Position numbers and translations under genes: made by a program. From NCBI GenBank assembly GCA_005222975.1, contig NJBI01000009.1:1-64000 (forward strand): a stretch of DNA of 64,000 bases. The letters are read 5' to 3'. The notes below the pieces were generated by a model. It had not been told where the DNA came from, did not search any database, and worked only from the letters and a program-made list of their open reading frames with translations. This document shows, one piece after another, positions 3,520 through 38,317 of the stretch (within the stretch, counting starts at the first letter, position 1; each line of letters begins with the position of its first letter). The stretch is from Promethearchaeota archaeon Loki_b31. Its GTDB lineage: Archaea; Asgardarchaeota; Lokiarchaeia; Sigyniarchaeales; SOKP01.

Positions 3520-4695
3520 CTATTTTCTTAAGAGTCGCTTTTGAACTACATAATGCGTTCTTGTTGGGGTCCCGTGCGGAAAGATTGTCTTTATCGCTCG
3601 GTCGTTATTAGCCCAGATTGTAGTTCCTTCGTAGTAGTTAAATCCATAGGAGCTGGACGACAGAAACATTCCGATATTGTGAAGCGCGGAGAAGATTCCC
3701 TTTCCAGCGTATTCTTTTTTTATCATAACCGTGTCTACATTTAAGTGGGTTAACGGTTCTCCGTTCCACAGCTGAAACAAGTTCGGTTGGCACATAATAA
3801 CGCCTACCAGCTCGTTAGTGTTTCGGTCGAAACCGAAGATGGCCATAGGAACGATTTTTTTGAGGTCGCAAGATTTCCAAGTTTCTCGGAATCCAGGCAT
3901 ACCGGCGTAATCTTGGGGAAATTCTTCGCTAACTAATTTTAGTACTTTGCACGCTTGAGCGTACCCGTCCATCATTTCTTCAAATCGAGCTCTACCACCT
4001 GGCGCATCCGCAAGTACGGCGTATAGAGATTGAGATGCTAAACCCATTATTTGTTCCTTTAAATCCCTTATTTCGTCGAGGGGCAAAAACCTGACTGCTA
4101 TGTTTTCGTCTAGATTTTTACCTTTGTCCCACTTTTTTAAGAAAGTGTCAAGGCACGAGTACTTCGAGTCTTTTTTGTAGCCTAATTGTTGCAAGTACTC
4201 CAGAACTTTTGACTCGGGATCGCCGAACGTTACGCCGCTCATCATGGGAGCTTCAAACCCTTCGGTCTGAAAACCGATCCCGCCGACAAATTTCGGGTAA
4301 TTGATTGGACCACGGAGCTTTTTCTTTTTGTTTTCGCGAACGAAATTTTCACACTCATTCATGAGCTTTTTACAAGAAAGAAAATTTTTGGCATGAAGCC
4401 AGCCAAAAGTCGGGCATGACATTCCGTAACTTTTGTAATCACCGTCTATTTGACAAATTACGAATCCCGTTAAGATTCCGTCCTGAGTAGCGTAAGAAAA
4501 TCTAATTTTATAGTCTGGTTCCGAAAATTTCTCTGTAAAATAATCTACAAGTTCTAAAACAATCACGAGTTTTAGCCTTTCATCAGGAACGTATAAAAGC
4601 TCAGTTAAAACAAATTGAATTTCCGAAATATTTCGAGTTGAAGCGACAGTAAGCTCCTTTTTTTTAAAAATTGGTTTTTCTAAACTAATTTCCAC
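3520..4695 (-). CDS. Tandem GNAT-fold acyltransferase (YghO-like)
   Basis: FGWL...KKLRGPIN...GF N-domain; C-terminal MIKKEYAGKGIF acyl-CoA motif and TIWANN. Confidence 0.7.
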   Translation of the reverse strand: MEISLEKPIFKKKELTVASTRNISEIQFVLTELLYVPDERLKLVIVLELVDYFTEKFSEPDYKIRFSYATQDGILTGFVICQIDGDYKSYGMSCPTFGWLHAKNFLSCKKLMNECENFVRENKKKKLRGPINYPKFVGGIGFQTEGFEAPMMSGVTFGDPESKVLEYLQQLGYKKDSKYSCLDTFLKKWDKGKNLDENIAVRFLPLDEIRDLKEQIMGLASQSLYAVLADAPGGRARFEEMMDGYAQACKVLKLVSEEFPQDYAGMPGFRETWKSCDLKKIVPMAIFGFDRNTNELVGVIMCQPNLFQLWNGEPLTHLNVDTVMIKKEYAGKGIFSALHNIGMFLSSSSYGFNYYEGTTIWANNDRAIKTIFPHGTPTRTHYVVQKRLLRK

Positions 4696-4791
4696 TCTTT
4701 AATCAACTTTTTATATTTCTATAATAATTTAAGATAATATCCTTCAAAGAAGAATATATTTAAAGAAAAAAATCTAAATTCAAAAAAAAAA

Positions 4792-5370
4792 CTAGTAAAA
4801 TCCAAAGATTAGAGCTGCAAAACTACTTAAAGTTAATGCTATAGTTAAAGCAATTATTAATTTATATCTGTATACTTTCTTCTGTTTGGCGATTAATTCT
4901 TCTCGTTTTATTCTTTCCTCCATGTTATCTTTAAATAAAAATCGCCGTGAAGCCTTAGTTCTTCCTGCAAAAGCTAACATTGCACCCACTTTTTTATCTC
5001 TAAGAGTAGAAACAGCAGAAAACTTAAACGAAATTATAAGATAAATCCCTGAAGGGAAAAGAAGTAAAGTGTAACCTAATCGACGTCCTGTTAGTATATA
5101 AGAAAGCCTATAAGAGAACAAAATAAGTGCTATAAATGTAAAGAAAAAATTATTAAAAGCAAATGCTCTAATTAGATAGATATTAAATGGGTTCCGAGAT
5201 ATCCACAAAAATAAAACTACAAACGCGATAAGAACAACTATAATGATAAATATTAAAGAAACTATCAAATTGCTTAAAATAAGGATAGCAGTTAAGACCA
5301 TACATAGTGTGTTAAGGAATGTAAAAACTATATCTAGAATTTCATATTTGTTTCTTGGTAAATCATTCAT
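4792..5370 (-). CDS. Integral membrane protein (about 5 TM)
   Basis: Multiple hydrophobic helices; AT-rich relative to neighbours. Confidence 0.7.
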   Translation of the reverse strand: MNDLPRNKYEILDIVFTFLNTLCMVLTAILILSNLIVSLIFIIIVVLIAFVVLFLWISRNPFNIYLIRAFAFNNFFFTFIALILFSYRLSYILTGRRLGYTLLLFPSGIYLIISFKFSAVSTLRDKKVGAMLAFAGRTKASRRFLFKDNMEERIKREELIAKQKKVYRYKLIIALTIALTLSSFAALIFGFY

Positions 5371-5414
5371 ATATTTCCACTATAAAATTCGATATATAAA
5401 TGTTGTTGATTAAG

Positions 5415-6650
5415 TTAAATGTTAATTTGTAGATTTAATATGTTTACTAAATCTTGACCTACTGGAAGAAGGTCAGCTTGTGGAACCTCTCCCTCGAAAT
5501 AATTAAATACTACATAATCTTCGAACTTATTTTCGGTTTTGTTGTAGTTCCAGCAGGGCACGTATCCTCTCGCCCGAAACCCGAATTCGTAAAATAATTG
5601 CTGATCTTCCGGACGAAATGCTGAAATAAACGCTTCGCAATATCGTATTTTGTTAATTTTCATACTCTTTAGGAATTCTTCGAGATATACATACAATTCT
5701 TCTAAAGATTCAACACGATACTTAGTTTTCTCGAAGTTTTGAATTTGAGATGTATGTAAAAAAGTAAAGTAAGATTTTGTGCCCCTAATAAAAAATTGGT
5801 TGTACCCGTACCCGTACTTGTCGGTAATTAAATCCTTTCTGAAAGCTTTTTGTAGCTCGAAAATTTTGTTGTAGTCCAAGTCGAGGTCGGGGGAGGCCAA
5901 CTGAAAGTTCCCAAGTTTGTAAAGTTTGTCGCAGTGCAAAAAACTGTCCAAAGCGTTTTCGATCAATACCGGCGTTTTTCGTTCCCTGTACTTTTTAAGA
6001 GTTTTTTCGTGATAAATTACTCCCATAACATCTGACTCAATTCGGTTGTAGAATACATCTTTATTGGGAAAGAAAGCAACCGTATTTATCCCGCACACGG
6101 AAGTAATGTACTGAGATGCTGCGTGAGCGGTTCTGTTTTCGCAATACCACATCAAAATCTCCTTCTGATAAGTTTTCCACATCCAAGCATACGAACCAAT
6201 TATGGATTTCGTTACGTCTAAGATTCGTTGGTATTTCTTTTTTATCATAAAACCGCCAGAATATCCTTTTTTGTGCTCGAAATCTAATGAACATCGAAAA
6301 CAACCGGCGACCTCTCCGTTTATTTCGAATAAAATAAAGTGGTTGTCGGGACTCTCGATCATCTTCTTAACCATGCGCTCGTCTTCGATCTCTTTATAGG
6401 GATATGTACCATTGTACACCTCTTTACAAATACTTGCGATAATTTTAGCATCTTTAGGCTTAGCAAGTACTAAAGTGGGGCTTATTTTATCGCTTCCCAT
6501 TTTAGTGTCGATTAAAAAGTCAAGATCCATGCCTTTCTCTAAGTCTAAGTCCAATACATCTTCAAAAATTTCTAGAAATTCGTCAATTGAGTTTGGACCA
6601 AGTTTTTTGTATGGTATAATGGGATATTGAATTATTTCTTGGGTTATCAT
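5415..6650 (-). CDS. Multi-domain GNAT-like protein
   Basis: AKPKDAKIIASICKEVYNGTYPY, MIKKKYQR, ENRTAHAASQ, FGFRARGYVP patterns. Confidence 0.65.
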   Translation of the reverse strand: MITQEIIQYPIIPYKKLGPNSIDEFLEIFEDVLDLDLEKGMDLDFLIDTKMGSDKISPTLVLAKPKDAKIIASICKEVYNGTYPYKEIEDERMVKKMIESPDNHFILFEINGEVAGCFRCSLDFEHKKGYSGGFMIKKKYQRILDVTKSIIGSYAWMWKTYQKEILMWYCENRTAHAASQYITSVCGINTVAFFPNKDVFYNRIESDVMGVIYHEKTLKKYRERKTPVLIENALDSFLHCDKLYKLGNFQLASPDLDLDYNKIFELQKAFRKDLITDKYGYGYNQFFIRGTKSYFTFLHTSQIQNFEKTKYRVESLEELYVYLEEFLKSMKINKIRYCEAFISAFRPEDQQLFYEFGFRARGYVPCWNYNKTENKFEDYVVFNYFEGEVPQADLLPVGQDLVNILNLQINI

Positions 6651-6784
6651 TTTTTTTGCGCTATAACTACTTTCTATTAGTTGTATTCAACTAAAAGCGA
6701 GTCTATATAAATAAAAATTTGAAATAGATTTCTTTTTGTGAATTTTTCTTAAATTTTCTTTTAAATAGCTTCGGTAGTTAAGCT

Positions 6785-7675
6785 ATGAAAACACACAAAA
6801 ATGGTTTATTAAAGATGTTTGTCAATCAAAAATTAGATGATTGGTCAAATTCTTATTGGGAGCGCGTTACTCGGAACATTGGCCCCATAACTTATCAAGA
6901 GCAAGAAACGATTAGGACCTCGAGAGTTGCAGTTCTCGGAGTGGGCGGGTTAGGAGGTCCTTTAGCAGAAAACTTGGTTAGAGCTGGCTGCCAAAACTTA
7001 GTAATTTGCGATCACGATGTTTTCGACGAGTCCAACTTGAACCGGCAAATCTGTACCATTGATGATGTTGGTAAAAGAAAAATCGATGTTATGGAAACTT
7101 TCTTGCGAAAGATCGATCCTGAAGTTAATATTAAAAAATATTTTAAAATTATTGAGAGAAACATAGATTCAGTTCTCGAGGATGTGAAAGTTGTAGCCCT
7201 CACTTTAGACGACCCCGCTACCTCAATATTTATCGCTAGAGAGTGTCGAAAAAGAAATATTCCCATGATCGAGTCGTGGGGCGTTCCTTTTTTGTTCACT
7301 TGGTGGTTCACTCATGACAGCGTAGACTACGAAAATTGCTACGGTTTAGACACGTACCATTACAGTTATTCTGAGCTTAGAAACCCGAAAAAAGAAGTAA
7401 ATCTAGCCGTCTACCAAGCCTTATTACCGAAAGTTTTTCGAATGCCAGGAGTCAGAGAAAAGTACGACCGAGAACCGGGAGCTTTCGAAGAGATGATGTC
7501 TGGAAACATCGGAGCTCGTTCTTTTACCCCGTTTGTAAGGATTACTTCTGATTTTCTTTCTGTGGATGTGATTTTTTCCGGCATACTTAAAGTAAAACCT
7601 ATGAATTTAGCCCCCAACCTAAAAGGGTTCGATTATATACAAATGAAAGTTTGCGAAACGATTTTAACGCATTAA
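6785..7675 (+). CDS. ThiF/MoeB/HesA (E1-like) adenylyltransferase
   Basis: RNIGPITYQEQ, VLGVGGLGG, DHDVFDESNLNRQ, VGKRK; lacks the C-terminal CxxC Zn sites. Confidence 0.85.
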   Translation: MKTHKNGLLKMFVNQKLDDWSNSYWERVTRNIGPITYQEQETIRTSRVAVLGVGGLGGPLAENLVRAGCQNLVICDHDVFDESNLNRQICTIDDVGKRKIDVMETFLRKIDPEVNIKKYFKIIERNIDSVLEDVKVVALTLDDPATSIFIARECRKRNIPMIESWGVPFLFTWWFTHDSVDYENCYGLDTYHYSYSELRNPKKEVNLAVYQALLPKVFRMPGVREKYDREPGAFEEMMSGNIGARSFTPFVRITSDFLSVDVIFSGILKVKPMNLAPNLKGFDYIQMKVCETILTH

Positions 7676-7758
7676 ATTTCTATATTTATTTTTAAAAAAA
7701 AAAGCAAATCCTTGAAAGTTAATTCCATAAAATAAAGGTAAATAAAAGAATTTTAAAT

Positions 7759-8676
7759 TCATTTATTAAAGTTGTTAAAAAGCGAGCCTAAACTCCTCTC
7801 TACTTTTTCGAGGAATTTAGGATTGCGTTCCAATCTACTCGAAAAATATTGGTGTAAATTCTTGTAAAACAACTTCTCGTTTCCAACTAAAAGTTGAGCG
7901 TCTAAATTGCTCGTTATTAGGTAAATAAATAGCCGAACAAAAGCGTTATGAGCTATTTCCATATCAGATGGAGTTAAATCGTAATTGTCGTGTTCAGCGT
8001 TGTTTCGGATTGTTATATACTTAATTAATTCTGTGGTTACCTCCTCAGGAAAGTTTAATTTCGCTATTTTTTCAGCCATAATCTCATGTTCTACTTTAGC
8101 GTTTTTGGTATTTTTGGGTTTTTTACCATCGTCTCCAAACTTCTGGCGGTAGAGTGTTTGCAACTTGTTGTATAGTTTTACATAGAACTTATAGTTGTTG
8201 TACCCGCACATATCGAACCATTCATCGATTTTAACAGCTAAAAAGACCCGTTTTATTTCGTTCTTTATTGTGTCTTCCAAACCTAGACTTTCAGTCTCAG
8301 TAGAAGGTATTTTCTTTACTTTTGACACAAGAGTGCTAATCCTTTTTGCTATTACTTCCAACAACTCGTTTCTTTCTGCCATCTCTTGCCGTAATTGGTC
8401 GTTTGCTAAATCACACTGATTTAAGTTAGTAAAATTATTATCAACCGGAGCTTGATCGTTATTTCGCGCACGATCGAGGCAAAAGATTAAGAAGTTCGAT
8501 ATATCTTTTACCATACGACCTCGACTGCGGAGTAGGTTTTGTTTTAGTTGTTTAGGTGTGATTGCTCTCTCGCTAAAGTTTCTGATGGCGATTTTGAGCT
8601 CATCTAACTCTCCCTCGTCAAAAATTATTTTTTCTATCACTTCTTCGAACTCCTCAACTTCTTGCGTTGTTGCCAT
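7759..8676 (-). CDS. Coiled-coil protein with a C-terminal HEPN-like domain
   Basis: IRNNAEH matches RxxxxH at ~7990-8007; start overlaps the upstream stop (TAATG). Confidence 0.55.
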   Translation of the reverse strand: MATTQEVEEFEEVIEKIIFDEGELDELKIAIRNFSERAITPKQLKQNLLRSRGRMVKDISNFLIFCLDRARNNDQAPVDNNFTNLNQCDLANDQLRQEMAERNELLEVIAKRISTLVSKVKKIPSTETESLGLEDTIKNEIKRVFLAVKIDEWFDMCGYNNYKFYVKLYNKLQTLYRQKFGDDGKKPKNTKNAKVEHEIMAEKIAKLNFPEEVTTELIKYITIRNNAEHDNYDLTPSDMEIAHNAFVRLFIYLITSNLDAQLLVGNEKLFYKNLHQYFSSRLERNPKFLEKVERSLGSLFNNFNK

Positions 8677-11600
8677 TAAATCGCCCCCATATCTCCTTCG
8701 ATGTATCGTTTAAACCCATCGAAAATCTTAGAATACATCTCGAAGGTTTCTTTGCTGCGCCTTTCTATGCCTTCCTCTTCGAAAGATATGTTTCCGCATT
8801 TAGTATGGAAATCCGTTAGTTCGTTGGCGGAAAACGGAAATCCCTCTACATCTGATATTGACTTGATAAATTTGTTGATGTCTGCCCTCATAATCGCGTA
8901 ATTAACGCTATAATAAGAGTTATATATTGCGTGAAGGAACTTTTTAAGTAAGTTTTTGCCGATTTTAAGCGCTTTTTCGAATTCTTCGCTTTTAATAGAT
9001 TGATGCATTTTAAAATGTTCGTAGTATAAGATTGGAGCGAAATGCTTGGTAAAAGCGTTCTTTAGGTTTTTAGCGTTAATTTTTTGTACTTGTGAAGAAC
9101 TCTCAGATTTATCGGAGTTTTCGGATTCCACATCTAACGGTTCGTAGGAGATTACCGCATTTCTCTGGGTTTCGTAGTAGTCGTGTAAAACTTCGTCGTA
9201 GTGCGGTCCGACAACGAAAGAAGTTTGTAAGGATTCCGAACCGCTTGCCCTTCTTGGATGACTCTCAACTAAGTATCGATGTCTTACCAAAATTTCGAAA
9301 GTTTTGTTTTTGATCTCTTTTTCTCTTTTTTTATCTTTAGTTATTTTCAGAATGTAAGGATGCAGCCATTCTGTTAGCTCTTTCTTAACTTTTTGTTCGT
9401 AAAGGTTGCCTACTTGGTCCAATTTTTTTAAGTTGTTTAGAAACTTTATTATTCCCTCAATTAACACGCTATAATTTCCGAAATCTTTCTGGAACAAAGT
9501 CTTTTCTGCTCGTTGTATTATTCGTTTTTCAGCGTTTTCCAAATCGTACCCTTGCTTTCCCATGTTGGCTACAATTTCTTCCCAAGACAGCGGTTTTACG
9601 TCCCTTACTTCTTTCAAATCAAATTCTACAGGAAAAGGTTGGTAAATGTCTTCTCGTTTTACCACGGCCTCGTCTTTTTTCATGCTTGCGATGTATTTCA
9701 ATTGGTATCCTTCGTTTCTACTGCGACTATAATACCCTATCCCGTGAAGAGATTCTAAGTTCATTAGAGAGCCAAGCGTCGCGCTATCTCTTTTATCGGT
9801 CGCTTTAAAAGTAACTAAGTTTTCGAAGTAATTGAACGCGTTAGGGTGTATATATCTAATTTGAGAAGCTGAGCAGATCGTTCCAAAACCTTTTTGCTGA
9901 AAAGGTTCGAGAAACTTGTCGATTATACCGTAATTAACTTTTTTATCTATAAAAAACCCGTCAAAAATTACATCTAAATGCGGTACAATTAAGAATTTAG
10001 GGTAATAAGCCTTTTCGGTCTTTAGATAATGGATAAACTTAGAAAGAATAACGAACGTAAAGTAACACTGCTTATCGTAGTTTTTAACTTCCGAAAAATC
10101 GATAATTACCGTTTTGTCGTGCATTATAAGCTCGTAAGAGGGAATAATCTCTTGCTTATCTAATTGTTGGCGTTGCATGAAGCTTATGTCTTGGGAGGTG
10201 AACTCGCTGAAAAACGATAGTAACGAATCGGTAATAGGTGACTTTTCCCACTCTCTCATAGTAGTTAGGTCTAAAGTTAAAGTAGAAACATCTATATTGG
10301 GATTACGCGCGATAGTATTTTTGAAGGCGTCGATCGTCCTCTCGTCTTTTTTGAAGCACAACGCAAAGGCATCGAACATGTAGTCCAAATAGCCTATGTT
10401 GTCTTTATCGTAGGGAAGTTCCGAAAAAAGAGGATTAACTAGAAATGTTTTGCCAACTTTGAGGTACAAAAACTTATCTTCGTATATCGTCCCCTCGAAA
10501 ACACTCATTAATTTAGACCAATTACCGGTGAAATCGAAAATTACAGATGGATATCCCGCTTTCACGAGTTCCGCAACGATTTTTTGACACAACGCTTCTC
10601 TACTCGAATTTGTCCCGTTAGTTATGAATAGGGAGCGTAACTGCTCGAGACTAAACCCCATTGGAACTTCATTTTCTAAGAACTCAGTGTTTATGGTGTG
10701 GCCAATAGTAATAAAGTTAGTTAATTGTAAAGGTGTGTTAAATTCTGCGGCTAACCTAGTCTCGATCCCCTTTTTGAATTGGTCGGAAATTTCGGTTATA
10801 AACATAAGAGTTTTTCCTTGAAACATCAAATAATTCAAATGGGTACCGTTCCTCCTAAAAAACTTGTTTTTGAGCGTTTCGAACAGGAGCCCCGATTCTA
10901 ACTCGTTTTTTCTAAGCTGTTTTAACTCGTAAGTAACAAAAAATTGCTTGAAGCTTTTTCGCAACACCAAACTTTGATTTTTTAACTTTTGCTCTATCTC
11001 GTCAATAATCTCGTAGTCAAGAGTAGGAGCTTTTAAGATTGCCGAAGTGGAATAAGTTATAATAACACTCCAGATGCCCGATCGAGAGCTTAGCCATTTA
11101 TTTCCGTCTATAAATGATTCCGTTCTTGTTAGCAATTTTTGCTGTTCTATGTCTTTTAAGAATTTAAAACCTTCTTTATCGAACTGATGGAAGTTTAAAG
11201 GAGTTAGTTGAATCGTGGTTGTAAAAGGCATTTTTTCGTGGATGAGAGCTTCGTAAAACTTACTCGCAGAGCAATAGGGCGGCGGATGAGTGAAATACGC
11301 GTTATTAATCTTTATTCCCCCGATTATTTTTCCTTCGACTTGGTAAAAAATAGTCTCGGGCGCTTCTGATACCTTGAAAAACTTAATATCAGAAAATGGA
11401 TCCACGACCTGGATGTCGTTCGATTTAAATAACTTGTTTTTGATTAGAAAGAAAAACACCTCACGCCACCAAATTACTATTATTGCTATAAGAATCGTAA
11501 GAGTTGCTAAAAATTGTGCTATTATAGGTAAGTTAAATACTAGAAGCAACCGATCTAGACATATAACAATCGCTAAAATGTAGCTTGCTTTCAATATAAT

Positions 11601-12449: not shown

Positions 12450-12458
12450 TTTTTATTA

Positions 12459-21668: not shown

Positions 21669-21669
21669 T

Positions 21670-23850: not shown

Positions 23851-23866
23851 TATCCTCGAACTCCCT

Positions 23867-28124: not shown

Positions 28125-28179
28125 TTTTATAATTTATAAAGTCATCTTTAAAATACTACTGATATCGGTAATTTCATTT

Positions 28180-28199
28180 AAAGGGTTATACAACCCTTT
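28180..28199. promoter_or_regulatory. Inverted repeat AAAGGGTT-ATAC-AACCCTTT (operator or terminator)
   Basis: Perfect 8-bp arms in the intergenic region. Confidence 0.4.
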
Positions 28200-28286
28200 T
28201 GAAATCATTTCAATCGCTAAACTTGATTGACATAATTATTAATTATTTACAAATTATTAATTACTTACAAATCATATCTTACAATT

Positions 28287-29744: not shown

Positions 29745-29783
29745 TTATTAAAAAACAAGAGAAAAAAAAGTAGGAAAGTAGCG

Positions 29784-31067
29784 CTAACAAGTCAAAGGGG
29801 GTCCCGTGGGGTTGTAATACCTCCACAATTCCAGCTTAACAAATTTTTTGTTTTCACATTTTTCTACTTTTCCAACGCTTTTGACATTTGCAAATTTTCT
29901 ATTGTTATTAATGTAAGTGTTATGATTCTGAATGATGGTTGCAAATAAGTACCCGTTAATGTTTTTTAAGAATAGGTAAAAATCTTTGCTCTCGTTTAAG
30001 TTGTTAAATACCTGGGTTGCATTTCCTAAGACTACTTGGACTATGTCTGCGCCATCAACGAGCGAATCTTCGTAATCGCCTGACTCTCCATCTACACAGA
30101 CAAAAGCAGGGTCGAGCACACCTAATTTAGACATTACTTTCTTTAACAAGCCGGCGGATTTTACTAAGCTCCTAAAACCTGAAACCCTAAATCGTTCTAT
30201 AACTCTCCTCTCTACTTGCCTGTGGATCGTTGACATTTTGATCCCTAACCTCTCGCAAAGAGCTGAAACGCTCACTCCATTGGGCTGAGAACAGAGCAGA
30301 GTGATGGAGGTTACGAGCCCCACGATAACATCGTCCTTCGTGTTTTTAATTTTCTCGTAAAACCGAGACAAAATCTTGTATGACTGGTAATAAAAAGACA
30401 TTCCCAAATCGAAGTGTTCGGTAATTTCTAAAATTCTTTGGATTATATATTCCTTGCGGTCTCTTTCTTTGTATTGCGGCCATAAACTTGCCATAGGAAT
30501 CTTGAATTCGTTAAAATCCTTTTTGGAAATCTTCGAAACTTCTAACAATTCTCTCTCGCTTATTGGTGTATTGTTGTGCTTATAATAAAAATAAATCACG
30601 CAAGGCACTAACATTTCAGTGCTCCGAAATTTCGTGCCTTTGCCTAATTGAGCTCGAATCTTTTTAAAAACTTCCAAAATACTAACAGAGTCGCTCAGAG
30701 GAAAGTCAAGATTCGTTAAAATGCTTTTTATCGCTATTTTTGCCGAAATTACAACGTTTTCCTCGCTCGTACGGTGAGAATCTAGCCTGTTTAAACCTTC
30801 GAGTCTAACCGAGTTTTTTGTTGCGCGCCTTTCGCTTTTGTACCCCATCTGAGTTTTACCCAAGACGGCGTACTGAACGATATCGGCGTCGTACGGTCTG
30901 TGGTACTCTAATTTCTGAACTTCTAGAACGATACCACAGTCTCGGCAGGTGTAGCACTCGCGAGTTTCGACAATGTTGCAAGATCCGCAAACATCGCAGC
31001 GCTCCAAAGGGTTTTGAACGGAGTCTACTACTATCGAATCGATTTTTACTAATTCGTGGGTTGCCAT
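29784..31067 (-). CDS. Divergent transcription initiation factor TFB/TFIIB paralog
   Basis: Zn ribbon CDVCG...CRDCGIV, two cyclin-like repeats, C-terminal HTH SVSALCERLGIKMSTI, extra C-terminal domain. Confidence 0.75.
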   Translation of the reverse strand: MATHELVKIDSIVVDSVQNPLERCDVCGSCNIVETRECYTCRDCGIVLEVQKLEYHRPYDADIVQYAVLGKTQMGYKSERRATKNSVRLEGLNRLDSHRTSEENVVISAKIAIKSILTNLDFPLSDSVSILEVFKKIRAQLGKGTKFRSTEMLVPCVIYFYYKHNNTPISERELLEVSKISKKDFNEFKIPMASLWPQYKERDRKEYIIQRILEITEHFDLGMSFYYQSYKILSRFYEKIKNTKDDVIVGLVTSITLLCSQPNGVSVSALCERLGIKMSTIHRQVERRVIERFRVSGFRSLVKSAGLLKKVMSKLGVLDPAFVCVDGESGDYEDSLVDGADIVQVVLGNATQVFNNLNESKDFYLFLKNINGYLFATIIQNHNTYINNNRKFANVKSVGKVEKCENKKFVKLELWRYYNPTGPPLTC

Positions 31068-31718
31068 TTTTTTATAATCACTAACTTTATTTTTAGTATT
31101 TTTTAATATTTTAATTCTGTAATTATTTTTAAACTAAGAAATGAAGATCACCAGTATGCTATTTTAAGATTTGGAATTAGGTAAAAAATAGCGTAGAAGT
31201 TCAAAAAGAAAACGCATAAAAGCGTAAATAGTGAAAATTGATGCGGAACCTAATAATTATTCTTCTAAAATTCATCAATCTATAGTGGAGGGTTTCATAT
31301 TTAGAAGATAAAATTAACAATTTTTTGTGAAAAACACAATTTTGCAATTCTAATCCCAACTAGTAAAATTATTTTTTCACAACCGTCGTAGTTACAGATT
31401 AAACTGGGAATATAAAAACAATCCTAATAGAAAAATTGATTTAAAATAATCGTGGATATATGTCAAAATAGAATTATGACAATATTCTTAATAAGATAAA
31501 AACCCCTATAAAATCTATGCATAAATCAAATATTATTAGAATTGGGTTTTAAATTTTCGACTTTTCTTAAGTCTCCCGTTGAAATTACATGTTAATTATT
31601 ATATTTGTCATAAATTTGTGAGAATTGTCCTATTTAAACCCCATTTTTTTATATAAAAGTCAAAGAAATTAAATAATTAAAATAAGACTATTAATTAAAG
31701 GAAATTCGAAAAAAAGAG

Positions 31719-31949
31719 TTGGAGCATGTGCAGAAAGACGATGATTTTCGGTTCGAAAAGTTAGATTGCCCGCGATGTAAGTCCAAGAAGATGATTAGGT
31801 TTGCGTGGGAGTCTGAAGCCGAACTCGAATGCACGGAGTGCGGAGAGCGATTTGACGAGAAAGACCTGTTAACTATCGACGACCCCTCGAACATTTTAAC
31901 TGTCAAAGAAAAGTTAGCGTTCATTCGCGCTTTCAAAGAAAGCGATTAG
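31719..31949 (+). CDS. Small Zn-ribbon protein
   Basis: CPRC...CTECG. Confidence 0.7.
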   Translation: MEHVQKDDDFRFEKLDCPRCKSKKMIRFAWESEAELECTECGERFDEKDLLTIDDPSNILTVKEKLAFIRAFKESD

Positions 31950-32023
31950 TCCTGATTTATTGAAGTCTCCTGTTTGAAGAAATCTAATTTTTTCTTTATA
32001 AATTCTCGCCATATATTGATTTT

Positions 32024-32785
32024 ATGTTGGATCTATTCTTTTGGCTGTTCTTAATGCTATTAATTTCCATCGGAGTTCAAACTTGGTATAGACGCGTTCA
32101 CACCCGGGGTCTCAAAGCGTTTCTGCACATTTTAGCCTTCGTTGGGGTTTTTGTTCACGAAGTGGCTCATTACGCCTTCAATGTTTTGTTTGGCGTCAAA
32201 ACCGGCAAAGTAAAAGTTAAATACCGTAGCGAAGATAAAATGAGGGTCGCCCCTCACGGATCGGTCGGTTTACCTGAGTTCGAGCGAAACTCTTTTCTAC
32301 AAACGTTTGTTGGCAGCGTAGCCCCGTTGTTTGTGTCGACTTTCCTTTTTCTTTTTTGCGTAGACATCATTTTCAACATACAAACTGATGCTTGGGTAAA
32401 TGTAGTTGCCATCGTTTTCTGCGTATCGCTTTTTATCGGTTCCGAACCTTCGGGGCAAGACATGAAACTAATTGGCGAGACTTTTAAAAGAGACCCGAAA
32501 TATTCCATTTACCAAATAGCTTTAGTCGTCGCGTCAGGGCTCATCGTGTGGTTTTTCGTAGACCTCTATTTTATCTACCTACCATTTGAAGTTCTATACT
32601 ACATCGAATACTTCTTTTTCGTGATATTGGTCTATTTCGTTTTGAAAACTGCCTTTTGGATTATCAGCAGTTGTTTCAGTGCTTTAAAAAGGCCTAAATT
32701 TCCAAGTATAAAGTTGTTGACTCGAAGGAGAAGGTTTAAAATGTTTGCTCCAAGAAAATTAAAAGAAAAAGAGGCGCAATGGTAA
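32024..32785 (+). CDS. Membrane metallopeptidase (M50/site-2-protease-like)
   Basis: GVFVHEVAH within a TM segment, SVAP, PSGQD. Confidence 0.75.
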   Translation: MLDLFFWLFLMLLISIGVQTWYRRVHTRGLKAFLHILAFVGVFVHEVAHYAFNVLFGVKTGKVKVKYRSEDKMRVAPHGSVGLPEFERNSFLQTFVGSVAPLFVSTFLFLFCVDIIFNIQTDAWVNVVAIVFCVSLFIGSEPSGQDMKLIGETFKRDPKYSIYQIALVVASGLIVWFFVDLYFIYLPFEVLYYIEYFFFVILVYFVLKTAFWIISSCFSALKRPKFPSIKLLTRRRRFKMFAPRKLKEKEAQW

Positions 32786-33136
32786 GTGAAAGGTTTTTGT
32801 TTAGTGGCGGTCGTAGTCGCAATGTTGATGTTTTACCAAAAAGAACCCGTATACACCCTAGTTATTATCGGTGTAGGATTATTCTTCTATTTGTTCTACA
32901 AAGCGAGAAAGAGCGGAAATGGAAACGGTCTACTGGGGGCTTTTTTGAGCAGAAATCAGACTTCGCAAGATAGAAACTTCGACGATTTAATGGCATTAAT
33001 AATGCTCCAACAACTACTCTCCAACAATCCTCAAGGCTCGAGCGCTTCAAGGGAAATATCCGAAGAGAGCCAGAAGCGTCGAGAAGAGATAGATAAAATT
33101 CAGCGAGAAGTTTTAGACTTGCTGGATAGCGATTAA
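32786..33136 (+). CDS. Small membrane protein
   Basis: Two N-terminal hydrophobic segments; starts directly after the peptidase stop. Confidence 0.7.
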   Translation: MKGFCLVAVVVAMLMFYQKEPVYTLVIIGVGLFFYLFYKARKSGNGNGLLGAFLSRNQTSQDRNFDDLMALIMLQQLLSNNPQGSSASREISEESQKRREEIDKIQREVLDLLDSD

Positions 33137-33165
33137 TCTTTTTATTTTTAGATGGTAATTAAATC

Positions 33166-33876
33166 ATGATCGAGCTCGAAGAATCGGCAATTATTTCTCA
33201 TATTTTCGATTTAGCTAAGAAAAACGGTCTTATATCGATCGCCGGCAAATCTGGTACGGGAAAAACCACCTTGGCTCTGCAATTTGTTAGCACACTTATG
33301 ACGCTCGAAAAAACTTACCGAGACCAGTGCGTCTGGATACAAGCAAGCGAACAATTTCCTAAAAAAAGGTTAAGAACGCTTTTTGAAAGTTATTCTGATA
33401 AAGTCAATTACGTTCTGAAAAACATATTTATTGCCCCTGGAATAAAACCTTTTTCTAACTACCAAGAGCAATCTTCTTACTTTAGAAAATTAAAGACCAC
33501 GATTTTTCCAAGTAACGCTAAAATCATCGTTATCGACAATATTTCCCATTTTTTGCGCTTTAACATCGCTTCTAACTCGGACTTTAAAAAACGGGGAGCT
33601 ATCATGGACGAATTTTTCAGCGTACAGTTGTTTCCCTTAATAATGCGTTGCCTAAGAGAGAAAATAATTCTTATCTTGGTCCACGAGGTTTCTTTCGATC
33701 CTACCTCAGGCAAGACAAAACCTTTTTTTAGCAAGTTATACGATAGAATTGACTCGATAAACATCAACCTCTCGAAGACTATGGGTTCGGGTCTAAAACA
33801 GATGGAAATTAGTTCGAAAGGTACCTCTACGAAGTTTGTCTACGAAATTGCAGAATCTGGAATCGTAAATTTGTAA
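33166..33876 (+). CDS. RadB/Rad51-paralog-like RecA-fold ATPase
   Basis: GKSGTGKT, WIQASEQFPKKRL, IIVIDNIS, YEIAESGI; no N-terminal HhH. Confidence 0.75.
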   Translation: MIELEESAIISHIFDLAKKNGLISIAGKSGTGKTTLALQFVSTLMTLEKTYRDQCVWIQASEQFPKKRLRTLFESYSDKVNYVLKNIFIAPGIKPFSNYQEQSSYFRKLKTTIFPSNAKIIVIDNISHFLRFNIASNSDFKKRGAIMDEFFSVQLFPLIMRCLREKIILILVHEVSFDPTSGKTKPFFSKLYDRIDSININLSKTMGSGLKQMEISSKGTSTKFVYEIAESGIVNL

Positions 33877-33969
33877 TAAGGGTTAGCGTTTCCGATTATA
33901 TAAAGGCAAAATTTTAATGTGCCAATTTTCCTTTTCCTTTAAATACATTGGTGAAGAAGATAATTTACG

Positions 33970-34344
33970 ATGAATGCGCCAAATACCACGATCACGAACG
34001 AAATAAAATGTTCGATCTGTCGAGCCGACATAAAACACCGCAAGATGTACCAAACAAGTTTGAAGCTCGGTGTGATTTGTAGGATGTGTAGGCAGCGCTT
34101 CTCAGACGAGGACATCGAGATGATTATAAACATGTTTTTCGCGTTTGGGGGATTCTTTGGGGCACTCGATAGGTCCAAATTCTCCATCGAGGATACTATC
34201 CTTGAATTTGCCAAAAATTTAGATAAAGAAAAGGTTGATTTTCATTCGCAAAACATCAGAATGTGGCATAAAGTATTAACTCACGGTATTACCCCAAAAG
34301 AGTTTTTAAAAGAATTATCAGCTTTTTCTGAGCAAGAACTGTGA
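33970..34344 (+). CDS. Zn-finger hypothetical protein
   Basis: CSIC...CRMC, FFAFGGFFG. Confidence 0.7.
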   Translation: MNAPNTTITNEIKCSICRADIKHRKMYQTSLKLGVICRMCRQRFSDEDIEMIINMFFAFGGFFGALDRSKFSIEDTILEFAKNLDKEKVDFHSQNIRMWHKVLTHGITPKEFLKELSAFSEQEL

Positions 34345-34531
34345 ATGCTTAGTATTTAGGGAATTAATATAGAAAGAATTTTAAACTTAGCTCTTCGTTT
34401 TTGTTATTTCTTATAAATATTATTATTATCCGTTATTTCATGACTTTGATACAAACAAACTATTTTTGAATTAATTCTTTAAAGATTATTTTTATGTTAT
34501 GAGTATATATCGTTAGAAGTTAGATTATTGT

Positions 34532-34654
34532 ATGAGAAAATTAGCAGAAAAACTCAAAAAAGTAGACATAGAATTATCTAAATGGACCAGAGAAGTTCTA
34601 TTTGAGCATTTAGTAGAAGTATGTCAAGATATTAAACAACATGGGAAATTATAA
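34532..34654 (+). CDS. Possible 40-aa protein (MRKLAEKLKKVDIELSKWTREVLFEHLVEVCQDIKQHGKL)
   Basis: Below the ORF-track cutoff; ATG about 28 nt after TATATAT; amphipathic, RHH-like. Confidence 0.35.
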   Translation: MRKLAEKLKKVDIELSKWTREVLFEHLVEVCQDIKQHGKL

Positions 34655-34821
34655 AGAGCCTAATACTATTTTTATTTTCCAATTTCAATTTAGTTTAAAG
34701 AGTTAGAATTTTTAATCCAATTTTTTATGAATAAATGAAATTGTGTACAATTTTTTTCTTTATTAGTAACCGTGTCTAATCTGAATTAATTTAAATTACA
34801 TTATGGAGTTGATACAAAAAA

Positions 34822-36088
34822 ACGTCAGATTTAGACCAAGTAAAAGGGATCAACGCTCGACAGATAAAGCTCTTGCAAGAGAGCGGTATTAGCACGGCGG
34901 AAGCTTTAGCAATGTCCCCACATAACATCATATCGGAGATCGACGGGTTAGGCGATAAAACAGCCAAGAAACTGATTTGGAATGCGCGAAACGCGTTAGG
35001 TATGACTGAGTTCATAACTGCCGATGACATCGACGAGAACACCGAGTACATTACCACTGGCTCTTCCGAATTAAACAGAATTTTAGGCGGCGGATTCCAA
35101 ACCGGAAAACTTACCGAAGTGTACGGACCCTTTAAGTCCGGTAAAACCAATTTAGCTCATACGATCGCTGTAACCATCCAGCTTCCTAAAAAAAAAGGAG
35201 GTTTAGGTTCCACAGTAGCCTACATCGACACCGAAAATACTTTTGCTAAGGAAAAAATCAAAAGAATCGCCAAAAGGTTTGGACTGGATCCGAAGAAGGT
35301 TCTATCGCAAATTTATCACGCCAGGATTTATTCATCGGACCACCAATCGCAAATGATTCAAAAAGCTGAAACTTTATGCAAAACTCGAAATGTGCGTTTA
35401 ATTGTAGTAGACAGTTTGATGGCGCTTTTGCGGGCCGAATATGTGGGTATTGGCATGTTAGCTCGTCGACAAAGCTTTTTGAACAATATGATACACGCCC
35501 TTTCCCGGGTTGCAGAGACATACAATTGTGCTGTTCTTCTTACCAATCAAGTTTCGACTAAGATGATGGGAATGTTTTCAGGAAACGACGCAATTGGCGG
35601 AAATAGTGATAAGATATTTCATCAATCACTTCTAAATCGTAGCCCATGGCTGCCACTTTCGTGTGATGTTTAAAACTAAAGGTTTCTCTTCCAATAATTC
35701 GTTAAAGCGGAGAGCTATAATAGTGGATGCGCCAGACTTGCCACCTGAAGAAGCAGAGTTTTACATAACGAGTGTAGGAATTGCCGACACGGAAAAGGGA
35801 GAGGTTCCCGAAGCTCAAGGCTTAGATTTCGAAGTCGAGACATTGTACGAAGAAGAGAGTAACGCCGAAGAGAGCGAAGTTTCCGATAATGGTAATGGTA
35901 ACCATTCGCTCATTGATGTTAAAGGAATTGGAGCCGGCACCGCAAAGAACTTAATAAAGGTCGGAGTAGGCTCTGTAAAAGAGTTGGTAAGTTCTGACCC
36001 CGAAAAAGTGGCTTCTAAAATTAACGGAGTCTCTTCTAAAATGGTCCTTGAATGGCAAACCAACGCAAAGACCTTGTTGAGCGTTTAA
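34822..36088 (+). CDS. radA: RadA/Rad51-family recombinase, two exons (34822-35604 + 35636-36088), 411 aa if spliced, extra C-terminal HhH
   Basis: N-terminal HhH, ITTGS..L..ILGGG, GPFKSGKT, YIDTENTF, LIVVDS, LTNQV; joining ORFs 34873-35673 and 35663-36088 restores IGGNIVAH...DAPDLPPEEAEFYITSVGI. Confidence 0.85.
35605..35635 (+). other. Candidate 31-nt BHB/BHL-type intron in radA
   Basis: Removal restores frame and motif; GTGAT/ATCAC stem, GGAA/TTCT central helix, ATA and AAA bulges. Confidence 0.7.
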
Positions 36089-36213
36089 AAATTAATAATT
36101 ATTACTATTTTTTTTTTCCTATCTACTTACTATTAGTGTTCTCTATTATCAGTGGCTTAGTTCCAGTAACTTTAGTTCTTATTTTTATATCTTTACTTAT
36201 TCGAAGAAAGAAG

Positions 36214-36441
36214 TTAAAGAACTTCGTCATAAAAATAGTACATGATTACGGCTGAAAAAATCCCTGCGGCAATAAAAGACATCGCTGACCACTCGGATGT
36301 AAACAATACAACCCAGAAATTCTTTTGAACTTGAGAAAAAGTTGTATATGCGCCCCAAATCGCTAAATTTATGGCACATGCTAAAAGAAATGCAATTACC
36401 ATCCAGATAGCAAAAATTATTATTACTTTTATAATCCACAT
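36214..36441 (-). CDS. Small 2-TM membrane protein
   Basis: Hydrophobic 75-aa ORF. Confidence 0.5.
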   Translation of the reverse strand: MWIIKVIIIFAIWMVIAFLLACAINLAIWGAYTTFSQVQKNFWVVLFTSEWSAMSFIAAGIFSAVIMYYFYDEVL

Positions 36442-36559
36442 CTTTTATGTAAAATGCTTATTTTTATCATAGTTAACGCAGATTATCTATTTATATGTAT
36501 ATGGAACGATTTTTTACAAAAAATGAAGCAATTATTAAATTAAGATTTTAGTAAAAAAG

Positions 36560-37591
36560 TTAATTGGTCCGCAAACTGACAGAGTTCTTTTTCCTGCGAA
36601 CGCTTCCTATAACGATCAAAGCTCCAACTACGAGTCCCGCGCTGAGGATAAACCCGAGAGTCCATTCTATCGGCACATAAAAGTAGCCTTGAATAGTTCC
36701 GTTGGTTGGTTCGGGGTCTGGCTCGGTTCCGTTTATACCGGTGCTTATAGAATAGTCTTCAGCTATCGCGTAAGCTATGTTTACCACGTCGACCTTGCAA
36801 TAGATTTTGATTTTAACAGTGTAAACTCCGCCAACCGCGGTCCCGAAGTTAAAGTGCAAGACCGTTCCAACGTTTCCAACGGTGTCGTTTCTGTAGATAA
36901 TAAAGTTGATGTCGTCGGGGTCGGTTAGATCGTAATCAATGCCGACTTCTTGACTAATTGGCTCGCCTCCAATCGCAGAAACTCTTCCGAGATAAAATTT
37001 GTAAGACACATCGGTTTTAAGCATTACGTTGTGTTCAATAATCGATCCGGCGAGAAACTTGTTGACTTGATATAACTCTAGATTGGCGATGAATTCAGGA
37101 GACATGATGTCGTACAGGCATTTGTCTTCCTTATCAAAAGAGATTTTAATGTATAAATTTAAGTTCAGCTCGGCAATAACCGAAAAAATAAGAGTGTAGT
37201 TTCCGTCAATCGCCGTCCCGAACGGTATTTCGAACCACTGGTCGCCGTGCGACACGTTGACTTCGGTTTTGAATATTTGATAAATGTCTGAGTCGGGATC
37301 TACCACCGTAACGTTGATCTCGCAATCGTGTGGCGTTACGATTTCTACTAAGATGTAATAATTGAGCTCTTCGTACAAGTACAAGTCGTCGAACTGTTGA
37401 ATATCGCTCGGAGCTAGAAATGTGAACACTTTGTCTACGAGCAATTCTTCGGAGCTCGCGTTAGGCGCGTCTATAAGTGCTAACTCGATATTTTCGTTGC
37501 CATTGAAGATAATTCGAAATTTATTAGTTAACAACCCAATAGTTAATCCTGATACGACCAAAAAAGCAAAAAGTATCGCTTTTGTATGCAA
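36560..37591 (-). CDS. Surface protein with two beta-sandwich-like repeats and a C-terminal TM anchor
   Basis: N-terminal signal/TM; repeated DPD...FGTA..G.YT; TM plus RRKK. Confidence 0.75.
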   Translation of the reverse strand: MHTKAILFAFLVVSGLTIGLLTNKFRIIFNGNENIELALIDAPNASSEELLVDKVFTFLAPSDIQQFDDLYLYEELNYYILVEIVTPHDCEINVTVVDPDSDIYQIFKTEVNVSHGDQWFEIPFGTAIDGNYTLIFSVIAELNLNLYIKISFDKEDKCLYDIMSPEFIANLELYQVNKFLAGSIIEHNVMLKTDVSYKFYLGRVSAIGGEPISQEVGIDYDLTDPDDINFIIYRNDTVGNVGTVLHFNFGTAVGGVYTVKIKIYCKVDVVNIAYAIAEDYSISTGINGTEPDPEPTNGTIQGYFYVPIEWTLGFILSAGLVVGALIVIGSVRRKKNSVSLRTN

Positions 37592-37592
37592 T

Positions 37593-37910
37593 TTAATAGC
37601 CGTACACCTCCAATTCTTTGAACTCCGAGATTAATTCCTTAACGATGGGACATCTGTCGTAATCGATGCAGGTAAAACACGGTTGGTCCGACCAGAAATA
37701 CGCTTTTTGGTCCGGTCTTTCGACTATAAGTAGCGGGAACTTGCTTTTTGGACATTCCAGAGCCGAATTGTTTATTTTACCTCTTTTAGGTAGCGCGTAC
37801 GAGAGTCCGCACACCTCGCACTTAACGAACCGTTTGTAATTGTTCGTCTTAAAAACGATTAGAGAGCACTCGCAACTAGGGCAAGCGCCTATTTCATCTA
37901 GTTTTTTCAA
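37593..37910 (-). CDS. Stand-alone topoisomerase IA C-terminal-type Zn-ribbon protein
   Basis: IGACPSC...KRFVKCEVC..SYALPKRG....CPK. Confidence 0.65.
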   Translation of the reverse strand: MKKLDEIGACPSCECSLIVFKTNNYKRFVKCEVCGLSYALPKRGKINNSALECPKSKFPLLIVERPDQKAYFWSDQPCFTCIDYDRCPIVKELISEFKELEVYGY

Positions 37911-38317
37911 CTGAAAAACTCCTTTAATTTAATTTTAAAGGGAAAAATAGCTTGGGCTATTTAAAGAAAAAAAGGCTTTCCGACAAAAAATCAGAAATCA
38001 AGGAAAGAGGTTTCTTTTAAATGAAACGATGTTCCTTTTAAATTTTGAAACTCCTTTATTTTTTTTTTAGATTGGTTAGGGTTTTTAATTCTAACCTTTC
38101 TTTTTTATTACATTAATCAAGTCTAAAAGCATTCGCCAATTTCTCCACTAAACAATTTTACTACTTTTAAAAATCCCTGTAAATTTTTAATAAATAATAT
38201 TCTATACCTTTTTTTTTAAAAAACTAATATCTAATGCTTCTATTTTTATATTTTAAATTATAAAAGATATTGTATAAGTAGAAACATTTAAAAAAAAGCC
38301 AAAAAAGAGGTAAGAAA

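Follow-up and report, generated by a model that had tools for sequence, protein, structure and literature searches.

A conserved island of Lokiarchaeia with a VirB4-like membrane operon, recombination enzymes and a divergent TFB: a candidate system for regulated DNA transfer

Results

Gene content and borders of the island

The sequence examined here, called the window throughout, comprises positions 1 to 64,000 of contig NJBI01000009.1 (C16 in our numbering) of Promethearchaeota archaeon Loki_b31 (GCA_005222975.1), a metagenome-assembled genome (MAG; G000 below) of 3.5 Mb in 99 contigs with 92% completeness, 6% contamination and 31.5% GC. Between 3520 and 37910 it carries a block of genes, referred to as the island, in which a divergent paralog of the transcription factor TFB (TFB'), a large VirB4-like membrane protein (VirB4') and several recombination enzymes, including island copies of RadA and Hef (radA' and Hef'), are encoded together. 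Relatives' genomes and loci carry G and L codes; the named ones are MAGs that bear the label Promethearchaeota, Promethearchaeia or Lokiarchaeota and originate from marine sediments and cold seeps.

All window proteins were compared by tblastn with 7 loci from four genomes of the same genus, i.e., three copies in G008 (C12, C20 and C49), two in G017 (C32 and C68) and one each in G012 and G016. The island is collinear in all of them as one discrete block, nothing to the right of 38318 is conserved in the tested relatives, and the neighbours to the left are common to G012 alone. These limits of conservation identify the coordinates of the original prediction, which had been made from the nucleotide letters and their open reading frames (ORFs), as the true borders of the island. 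The genes listed there are present and form a conserved module in the seven collinear loci as well as in the rearranged loci of G038, L068 and L069 (see below), and their clustering is far beyond chance. The core of the island comprises the following features, with transmembrane helices abbreviated as TM and helix-hairpin-helix domains as HhH:

3520..6650, minus strand: left module, 391-aa and 411-aa GNAT-like proteins around a 192-aa protein with five TMs (Pfam 18-20 bits, below the cut-off)
6785..7675, plus strand: ThiF/E1-type adenylyltransferase, divergent from the left module (PF00899, 126 bits; 49-86% identity in all island copies)
7759..16053, minus strand: membrane operon of five genes (the next five lines), gene order kept in all relatives
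14182-16053, minus strand: HhH-2TM protein, 623 aa (HHH_5, 50 bits)
13310-14071, minus strand: polytopic membrane protein, 253 aa (predicted TMs)
12459-13313, minus strand: 284-aa protein with a C-terminal 2-TM hairpin (predicted TMs)
8676-12449, minus strand: VirB4-like protein, 1257 aa, four TMs (by structure model)
7759-8676, minus strand: 305-aa protein
16511..18961, plus strand: Hel308-type helicase with a CxC...CxH insert (DEAD and Helicase_C matches)
20513..21118, plus strand: two small conserved proteins of 95 and 86 aa, orthologs collinear in relatives
21108..27483, minus strand: operon of four genes (the next four lines; family scans and TM prediction)
24538-27483, minus strand: 981-aa acidic surface protein with an alpha/alpha-toroid (prenyltransferase-like) match, a signal peptide or N-terminal TM and a C-terminal TM
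23867-24442, minus strand: 191-aa protein in the same operon as Hef'
21670-23850, minus strand: Hef-type helicase without a detectable ERCC4 nuclease (NF010337)
21108-21668, minus strand: DUF1922 zinc-ribbon protein (family match)
29784..31067, minus strand: divergent TFB/TFIIB paralog, 427 aa (hhalign, Foldseek)
31068-32023: non-coding region of ~950 bp upstream of the TFB' gene
32024..34344, plus strand: operon, collinear in all copies, for a 6-TM HExxH protein, a 1-TM protein of 116 aa, a RecA-superfamily ATPase and a Cys-rich protein of 124 aa
32024-32785, plus strand: the 6-TM HExxH protein (HExxH motif)
33166-33876, plus strand: the RecA-superfamily P-loop ATPase, 236 aa, with an intact Walker A (family scan)
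34822..36088, plus strand: radA' with an N-terminal HhH, RecA core, acidic linker and extra C-terminal HhH (Rad51, NF003301)
36560..37910, minus strand: right border operon of two genes (the next two lines)
37593-37910, minus strand: 105-aa zinc-ribbon protein, homologs also in the G038 and L069 islands
36560-37591, minus strand: 343-aa acidic surface-anchored protein with a signal peptide or N-terminal TM and a C-terminal TM, homologs also in the G038 and L069 islands

Two further segments are variable inserts outside this core:

19130..20443, plus strand: 81-aa protein and HD/YhaM-like OB-HD nuclease (HD 52 bits, YhaM model 139 bits)
27732..29744, plus strand: 130-aa membrane protein and NosD/beta-helix surface protein (NosD, 142 bits)

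The first was seen among the tested loci only in G017_C32, the closest relative, and the second has no collinear ortholog in G008, G012 or G016 by tblastn. Conservation of the core proteins is uneven, with RadA' at the top (87-94%), followed by Hel308 (67-93%), Hef' (52-86%) and the membrane and surface proteins (27-70%). The 391-aa gene forms the conserved left border, and orthologs of the left module are collinear in G008_C12, G008_C49, G012, G016 and G017_C68.

Several single-gene assignments of the original prediction could be sharpened on this basis. Its surface proteins are the 981-aa, 343-aa and NosD beta-helix proteins, and its Hel308-SWIM protein is indeed a Hel308-type helicase with a SWIM-like insert. 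The membrane operon, described as having four genes around a HerA/VirB4-like protein, consists of five, the protein in question being VirB4-like by structure, and the supposed membrane protease is a 6-TM protein whose assignment as a protease rests on the HExxH motif only. Family scans of the window ORFs (Pfam, NCBIfam, PHROGs and PADLOC) assigned no family to the 95-aa and 86-aa proteins in Pfam or PHROGs, and a profile search of PDB sequences with the 981-aa family returned nothing but a weak prenyltransferase repeat. In agreement with the first reading, no match to integrase, relaxase, replication, capsid or terminase families was found in the window with Pfam, NCBIfam and PHROGs; tRNA and Rfam scans of the window were likewise empty.

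Some of these genes also recall anti-virus or anti-plasmid defence, since the Hel308 scored 145 bits with Hachiman HamB models (over the helicase core only), E1-E2 (Cap2-like) models were matched by the ThiF protein, the present copy of the island contains an HD nuclease as an insert and HerA-fold proteins are common in defence systems. A defence island is nevertheless very unlikely: the PADLOC matches, limited to helicase, E1 and HD models, are generic and the HD gene belongs to a variable insert, neither HamA, Sir2 and DUF4297 nor any other partner was found, PADLOC gave no match for the VirB4-like protein or the proteins without assignment, and collinearity over 34 kb throughout a genus is not usual for such islands.

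Conservation, linkage and genomic context

Among the first 24 same-genus genomes searched, TFB' is present in 23 and VirB4' in 21, and 13 genomes, G000 among them, carry both on one contig at a distance of <1 to 26 kb. The VirB4-like family was found in 31 of the 40 sampled genomes of the taxonomic family; outside of it, matches are weak or partial, with split forms in several families and a diverged full-length copy in G038. The latter is a complete 4.3-Mb chromosome from a different family (RpoB 75% identical to that of G000) and carries eight island homologs, rearranged, within 31 kb, namely Hel308', the RecA-like ATPase, RadA', the Zn-ribbon protein, TFB', the HExxH protein, the 343-aa-like protein and VirB4'. 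The island is also rearranged in L068 (a 793-kb contig), with 2.2 kb between the VirB4 operon and the TFB' gene, and in L069 its genes are still together in a different order. Synteny across relatives, proposed earlier as a check, is hence retained within the genus and in another family, and linkage that survives shuffling at such depth argues for a joint function. We are confident that the island is a real functional module. The contrary assumption, an old syntenic neighbourhood of hitch-hiking genes without any joint function, could invoke that all evidence is computational and that some sites of the promoter motif described below lie at unrelated genes. It is highly improbable, however, as the genes stay together through extensive rearrangement at the family and order level, the block moves between genomic sites as one, and no other neighbourhood of the genome is as coherent in this motif as its promoters.

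Trees built for nine island proteins largely agree and show three recurring groups, with the long branch of G016 shifting its position. VirB4' identity falls from ~90% over 58% to 37% as RpoB identity falls from 99% over 96% to 94%, and the island is located on chromosomal contigs of up to 998 kb as well as in one complete chromosome. It occurs in at least four genomic contexts: G000 and G012 have a flank in common, the flanks of G008_C20 are C82-like, G008_C12 and G008_C49 represent a further context, and in G016 the island together with a right extension of 7-8 kb lies between orthologs of C18:48789 and C18:48901, which are adjacent in G000. This extension (L047:7192-11883 in G016), which is also found in G008_C12 and G008_C20, encodes an XPG/FEN1-like nuclease, a 313-aa RPA-like OB protein, a 177-aa protein, an Arf-like small GTPase and a 399-aa protein. 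The extension genes do not adjoin the island in G000, where distant homologs of the nuclease and the OB protein (~28-35% identity) are found on C8 and C88 and homologs of the GTPase module, some of them close, on C65 and C82.

Two MAGs contain extra copies, i.e., three in G008 (75-86% DNA identity, contig coverage 14.3-15.0, one RpoB) and two in G017 (a single RpoB), and copies of the same MAG are each other's nearest relatives. Co-binned strains as a source of the extra copies are a weakened explanation given the single RpoB and the equal coverage, yet the contamination of these MAGs amounts to 8-9%. At 35.5% GC, the island is the highest 34-kb stretch of G000 (mean 31.7%, standard deviation 1.1, maximum 34.6 over 250 windows), and its proteins diverge faster than those of flanking genes.

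Relocation, multi-copy MAGs and distinct composition keep a mobile-element reading alive, in which the island is, or formerly was, an integrated self-transmissible element comparable to integrative and conjugative elements (ICEs), with a VirB4-like apparatus moving the element and its own recombinases, instead of an integrase, inserting it through homologous recombination. Apart from the changing neighbourhoods, the additional copies, the GC content and the fast divergence, such a reading can refer to archaeal conjugative elements that lack recognisable relaxases (PMC9905601). Like archaeal ICEs, e.g., the pNOB8-type plasmids of Sulfolobus and the integrated mobile genetic elements of thaumarchaea (PMC6563490), the island has a VirB4-type gene and no relaxase and represents a distinct, relocatable and sometimes multi-copy block. 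In contrast to them, it has no integrase, TraG/VirD4-type coupling protein, replication or partition gene and no att repeats: the ends of the island in the window and in G016 share only AT-rich chance words of ≤14 nt instead of terminal direct repeats, and no tRNA gene lies in the window. Moreover, the VirB4-like protein has no relative in IMG/VR or PLSDB, the sites are chromosomal, the island is near-universal in the genus and co-diverges with RpoB, copies within a MAG are nearest to each other, and the sole Hel308 of the genus is encoded inside it. We consider an element of this kind rather improbable, and read the island as mostly vertically inherited with occasional relocation and duplication, an ICE-like past or present being possible.

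A T-tract promoter in front of the island genes

Most transcription units of the island are preceded by a T-tract, followed by C or G and then a TATA box, approximately TTTTTTCTTTAWATA:

4756..37971: shared promoter sites, with starts near 4770(-), 6716(-), 14112(-), 16096(-), 27553(-), 31989(+), 34753(+) and 37971(-)

Weaker variants precede ThiF, Hel308 and the gene at 33970; there is no site ahead of the TFB' gene, NosD or 27732, and the insert gene at 19130 has a good one. A shared promoter architecture had been noted at the outset, and the motif turned out to be rare: in an unbiased 9-mer test, TTTTTTCTT occurred in 7 of 19 upstream regions of the island vs 63 of 2407 genome-wide (p 2e-7), an enrichment topping all 470 control sets of 19 neighbouring promoters. 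In G008, G012, G016 and G017, the orthologous genes are preceded by sites at an unchanged distance. When a matrix trained exclusively on sites of G008, G012 and G016 was applied to the 2407 regions of G000, 4 island promoters ranked among the first 10, 7 among the first 30 and 12 among the first 100, and a second VirB4-like operon on C97 held ranks 2 and 10. In the distant G038, the genes for VirB4' and the 343-aa-like protein are preceded by T8-G(C)-TTTTATAA.

The possibility that the motif is simply the general promoter consensus was rejected, as it occurs in 2.6% of upstream regions and its T-tract lacks forward bias genome-wide (TTTTTCTT, 78 vs 100). The TATA core, in contrast, is oriented (241 vs 168), which marks the T-tract as a special element at the position of the B recognition element (BRE). 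Taken together, the island genes are probably co-regulated through this motif.

The island-encoded TFB paralog

Assignment of the 427-aa protein to the TFB family, proposed as a divergent TFB from the first inspection, is almost certain. It has no Pfam TFIIB match (PF00382) at E 0.01, a model that finds the five canonical TFBs encoded elsewhere in G000 at 60-89 bits; however, hhalign of a 12-row TFB' profile against these five gave a probability of 96.9% and E 2e-10 over 248 columns (22-285), covering the Zn ribbon and both cyclin repeats. The AlphaFold2 (AF2) model is of low confidence (pLDDT 51, core 70-85), its top 30 Foldseek matches being TFIIB, Brf and TFB (best E 1.5e-7), and the match to 1pft is weak (E 1.8). 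In the zinc ribbon (CxxC...CxxC), C24, C27, C41 and C44 are invariant in 12 homologues and aligned to the canonical TFB ribbon, and the two cyclin folds are followed by a C-terminal extension of ~140 aa. The recognition helix reads KMSTIHRQV, invariant within the subfamily, vs TEATIRNRY in canonical TFBs, and the B-reader EYHRPYD vs GPEWRAF. The rewritten B-reader and recognition helix are consistent with a changed specificity, and the altered helix together with the co-location of gene and promoters allows the tentative suggestion that TFB' reads the motif.

Alternative TFBs are established in the haloarchaeal families and, as TFB2 and TFB3, in Sulfolobus, and the island shares with them an extra TFB beside housekeeping copies, five in this case, and a particular gene set. 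TFB' differs by its far greater divergence below Pfam detection, by its C-terminal extension and by its rewritten B-reader and BRE-reading helix, with the T-tract at the BRE as candidate cognate element. TFB3 is a truncated co-activator. In contrast, TFB' is full-length, encoded inside the island and associated with a distinctive promoter.

The VirB4-like protein and its partners

The AF2 model of VirB4' (residues 58-1257, from a 39-row alignment) reached pLDDT 79 and pTM 0.62. Foldseek matched it with TrwK/VirB4 of the R388 conjugation machine (E 1.6e-16, ~970 columns), and by VIA the same comparison gave Z 27.1 with 632 aligned residues (model 52-911 vs chain 13-804), which covers both the N-terminal domain (NTD) and the ATPase domain. 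Lower values were obtained with VIA for the VirB4 C-terminal domain (CTD) 4ag5 (Z 25.0, rmsd 3.9 A), HerA (Z 23.6) and TrwB (Z 21.9). Judged from this model, the protein very probably adopts a VirB4 fold. At the sequence level it belongs to no Pfam, NCBIfam, PHROG or PADLOC family, and a 14-row profile found no PDB sequence; its feature neighbours in the ESM Atlas are DUF87, HerA_C and CedB clusters (0.90-0.91; a lead only). The place of the P-loop reads ITNGTNSSRE with N611, G612 and R617 invariant, and the Walker B strand reads TVIIDFS with D784 and S786 invariant (in 14 and 39 homologues).

Candidates for channel or pilin partners are, by their predicted topology, the polytopic 253-aa protein, the 284-aa protein with the 2-TM hairpin and the 192-aa 5-TM protein. 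No VirB3-like partner was recognised by sequence, and the 253-aa protein found unnamed clusters only in the ESM Atlas. The HhH-2TM protein has two TMs and no signal peptide, so its HhH domain is predicted to be cytosolic. The 236-aa RecA-like protein is the sole intact P-loop ATPase in the island without a known role.

A second, simpler type of VirB4-like locus occurs on C97 of G000 and in G009 (C32 and C78), G004 (C227) and G005 (C67), and in G009 and G004 a short TFB' of the same subfamily lies 0.8-4.5 kb away. The operon C97:24606-31982 encodes a TPR protein, a 298-aa protein, a 1291-aa VirB4-like protein (41% identity) and a protein cut by the contig end whose relatives measure 650-690 aa; it lies among housekeeping genes, adjoins a 232-aa Rad51-like ATPase and has island-type promoters. 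A third VirB4-like copy of G000 (C66:3-482) is cut by a contig end. In other Asgard families (G068:C348:16809-18937, G078, G087, G103, G109, G126 and others), the VirB4' profile finds adjacent split genes of ~300 aa (N-domain) and ~535 aa (ATPase domain), which may be unfused, less derived relatives.

Recombination enzymes

RadA' is a further copy beyond the housekeeping RadA. G000 encodes two other full-length RadA proteins (C50 and C13), Rad51-like ATPases on C97 and C67, and at C63:17425-18579 a solitary radA' copy with the HhH tail and 89% DNA identity, the rest of the island being missing there. Two RadA clades have been published for some Asgard groups (PMC12722695). The first ORF of radA' (34873-35673) matches Pfam Rad51 with 204 bits (positions 7-197) and NF003301 with 267.2 bits (cut-off 259). 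The gene is interrupted by an exact 31-nt insert (35605-35635) and resumes in the next frame in the ORF 35663-36088, which leads to the C-terminal HhH. Located after GGN codons, the insert is present in the window, C63, G017_C32, G008_C12 and G008_C49 and missing from G012, G008_C20 and G016, in which the ORF is whole (382-417 aa). Its stem AGTGAT...ATCACT is changed to AGTGAC...GTCACT in G008_C12, a compensatory change, and the minimum free energy fold is a local hairpin (z -1.4) with no clear bulge-helix-bulge. From these features, the insert could be a spliced mini-intron or a bypassed element. The position homologous to the radA' start (34822; window 34803-34825) reads ACG in the window and G017_C32, ATT in G008_C20 and G012, and ATG in G008_C12, G008_C49 and G016, and GGAGTTGATA or a close variant lies upstream of it in all but G016. 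This suggests a near-cognate initiation which would throttle translation.

In the case of Hef', the helicase part of the earlier assignment stands (NF010337, 563 bits vs a cut-off of 610, model positions 5-566 only; PF21210, 51 bits), and no ERCC4 or HhH match was obtained for the last 140 aa. A canonical Hef with helicase, ERCC4 and HhH2 is encoded on C75 (ERCC4, 94 bits) and a third Hef copy on C56. The island Hel308 aligns to Hel308 models with 302-412 bits (cut-offs 887-1216), the main stretch covering residues 3-478 only, and shows a weak archaeal domain 4 (24.5 bits vs 27); its SWIM-like CxC...CxH insert comprises residues 549-573, and the true start probably lies near 16439-16475, as judged from the frames of relatives. 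A second Hel308 is present in more distant families. The 236-aa ATPase, initially called RadB-like, belongs to the RecA superfamily with an intact Walker A, and scored 40.4 bits with the RadB model TIGR02237, far below the cut-off of 172; it is consequently not RadB proper and can only be assigned as a RecA/KaiC-superfamily ATPase.

Further observations in the window

To the right of the island, an LVIVD-repeat surface-protein gene (38882-40084; window 38623-40151) shows an internal 126-bp tandem periodicity, and DNA copies of it, 80-86% identical, are found on C43, C18, C37 and C51. A tandem duplication of ~240 bp with 82% identity (window 49153-49633) lies directly upstream of a 363-aa gene at 49619 with paralogs on C16, C38 and C91.

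Discussion

The explanation which we tentatively put first is that the island is a chromosomal DNA-transfer module derived from a type IV secretion system (T4SS), with dedicated recombination enzymes and run by its own TFB. The T4SS-derived membrane module would move DNA across the envelope, its parts being the full-length, probably non-catalytic VirB4 homologue, the small membrane partners, the membrane-tethered HhH DNA-binding protein and the fast-evolving surface proteins. Transferred DNA would then be handled by RadA', the RecA-like ATPase, the nuclease-less Hef' and Hel308, to which relatives would add the XPG/FEN1-like nuclease and the RPA-like OB protein. The units are probably switched on jointly via the promoter with the T-tract in the BRE position and the TATA box, and TFB' would be the most likely reader of this promoter, in the fashion of an alternative sigma factor. 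A function in DNA transfer plus recombination is plausible, and we infer it with reservation.

Several observations weigh against this explanation. A GK[ST] P-loop and a DE Walker B are found in 0 of 39 VirB4' homologues; lacking the canonical Walker A and B motifs, VirB4' is probably unable to power transport itself and probably a non-catalytic scaffold, so that a separate motor would be needed. No coupling protein or DNA-nicking enzyme was recognised in the island, and neither a VirB6-like channel nor a VirB2-like pilin was recognised when profiles of the 253-aa and 284-aa proteins were run against PDB sequences and, for the former, in the ESM Atlas. Besides, the toolkit is not purely a spare one. 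The genes had been predicted to be paralogs distinct from the housekeeping repair genes, which applies to RadA, Hef and TFB as extra copies; Hel308, however, is the sole gene of its type found in G000 and all same-genus genomes searched, because the only other match per genome is a DUF5814-type helicase. Nor is the motif confined to the island, as good sites also precede the genes for aIF5A, an epimerase, a radical-SAM protein, the main RPA and an exonuclease with an RNase-H fold. Island-type sites are further found ahead of a five-member family of ~200-220-aa proteins of unknown function with the motif ELSRQLRTFFNYK (C46:4518-5129, C46:28712-29326, C87:3671-4282, C45:4707-5366 and C38:30372-31028); since all 5 members are preceded by high-scoring copies of the promoter, the family may belong to the island regulon. 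The at least four neighbourhoods, the extra copies in G008 and G017 and the peak in GC content described above have to be added to this side.

Part of these points would fit a co-regulated programme without intercellular transfer, in which the ATPase-dead VirB4 and the HhH membrane protein tether chromosomal DNA at the membrane. Under the alternative TFB, this could serve repair, the segregation or resolution of chromosomes, or a step of development or of the cell cycle. The lost Walker motifs, the predicted cytosolic HhH domain, the presence of the sole Hel308 and the highly conserved RadA' in the island and the motif ahead of the main RPA and the exonuclease are in line with such a role. TFB paralogs also drive programmes other than the damage response, as for the cyclic TFB2 in Sulfolobus (bioRxiv 10.64898/2026.09.06.749720). 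On the other hand, the best structural match of VirB4', NTD included, is the VirB4 of conjugation and not FtsK or HerA, and the fast-evolving surface-anchored and many membrane proteins better fit an envelope-spanning, partner-recognising apparatus. Overall, we regard a tethering programme as unlikely.

For the T4SS-derived transfer module preferred here, the closest parallels are the Sulfolobales system Ced and the Thermoproteales system Ted, domesticated T4SSs that import DNA; Ted loci lie beside homologous recombination genes, and TFB3 co-regulates Ced, Ups and HerA in Sulfolobales (PMC9905601). An analogy to Ced and TFB3 had been drawn from the sequence alone, and it proved apt because the big membrane protein has the predicted VirB4 fold. 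In common with Ced, Ted and the TFB3 regulon (PMC9905601; PMC6101594), the island features a chromosomal, domesticated VirB4-type machine, small membrane partners, a link to a TFB paralog and no relaxase, and as in Ted (Rad50, HerA), recombination genes are adjacent. In contrast, VirB4' is similar to CedB and TedB in its fold only and not in sequence, comprises 1257 aa with two fused TM-pair modules and carries degenerate Walker motifs, none of the island proteins was recognised as CedA/VirB6-like or CedA1/VirB2-like, its recombination set is RadA', Hef' and Hel308 instead of HerA, NurA, Mre11 and Rad50, and its lineage is Asgard. On paper, the island hence resembles Ced and Ted without being a member of these families.

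With the inner-membrane complex of bacterial T4SSs (R388 TrwK/VirB4, VirB3, VirB6 and VirB8; PDB 8rtd and 7o42), the island shares the VirB4 NTD and CTD fold and a small 2-TM protein encoded directly upstream of VirB4', like virB3 before virB4. It differs in the absence of the GxxGxGK[ST] and DE motifs from VirB4', in the fused TM helices, in its chromosomal and mostly vertical occurrence and in that no VirD4, relaxase, VirB2, VirB6, VirB8 or VirB10 was recognised.

To our knowledge, nothing is known about DNA exchange and recombination in Asgard archaea. In our literature search, conjugation-derived DNA importers were described for Thermoproteota only, the paper on Ced and Ted (PMC9905601) makes no mention of Asgard archaea, and no paper on the island was found.

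The boldest version of the proposal, which we put forward as rather unlikely, is a mating-plus-recombination programme of Lokiarchaeia (Promethearchaeia). A rewired TFB reading a T-tract BRE would act as a chromosomally inherited, sigma-like switch for T4SS-derived cell-to-cell DNA exchange and a private recombination toolkit. The latter would comprise RadA', regulated at the levels of translation and splicing, a FANCM-like Hef devoid of its nuclease, Hel308 and, in relatives, the XPG-like and RPA-like proteins, with the fast-evolving surface parts setting partner specificity.

The island would also provide a clean example from nature of an archaeal TFB with a role like that of alternative sigma factors in bacteria. 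It represents a concrete candidate, open to testing, for how DNA exchange and recombination are regulated in the closest lineage to eukaryotes, and is of interest as such for the debated origin of sex and meiosis.

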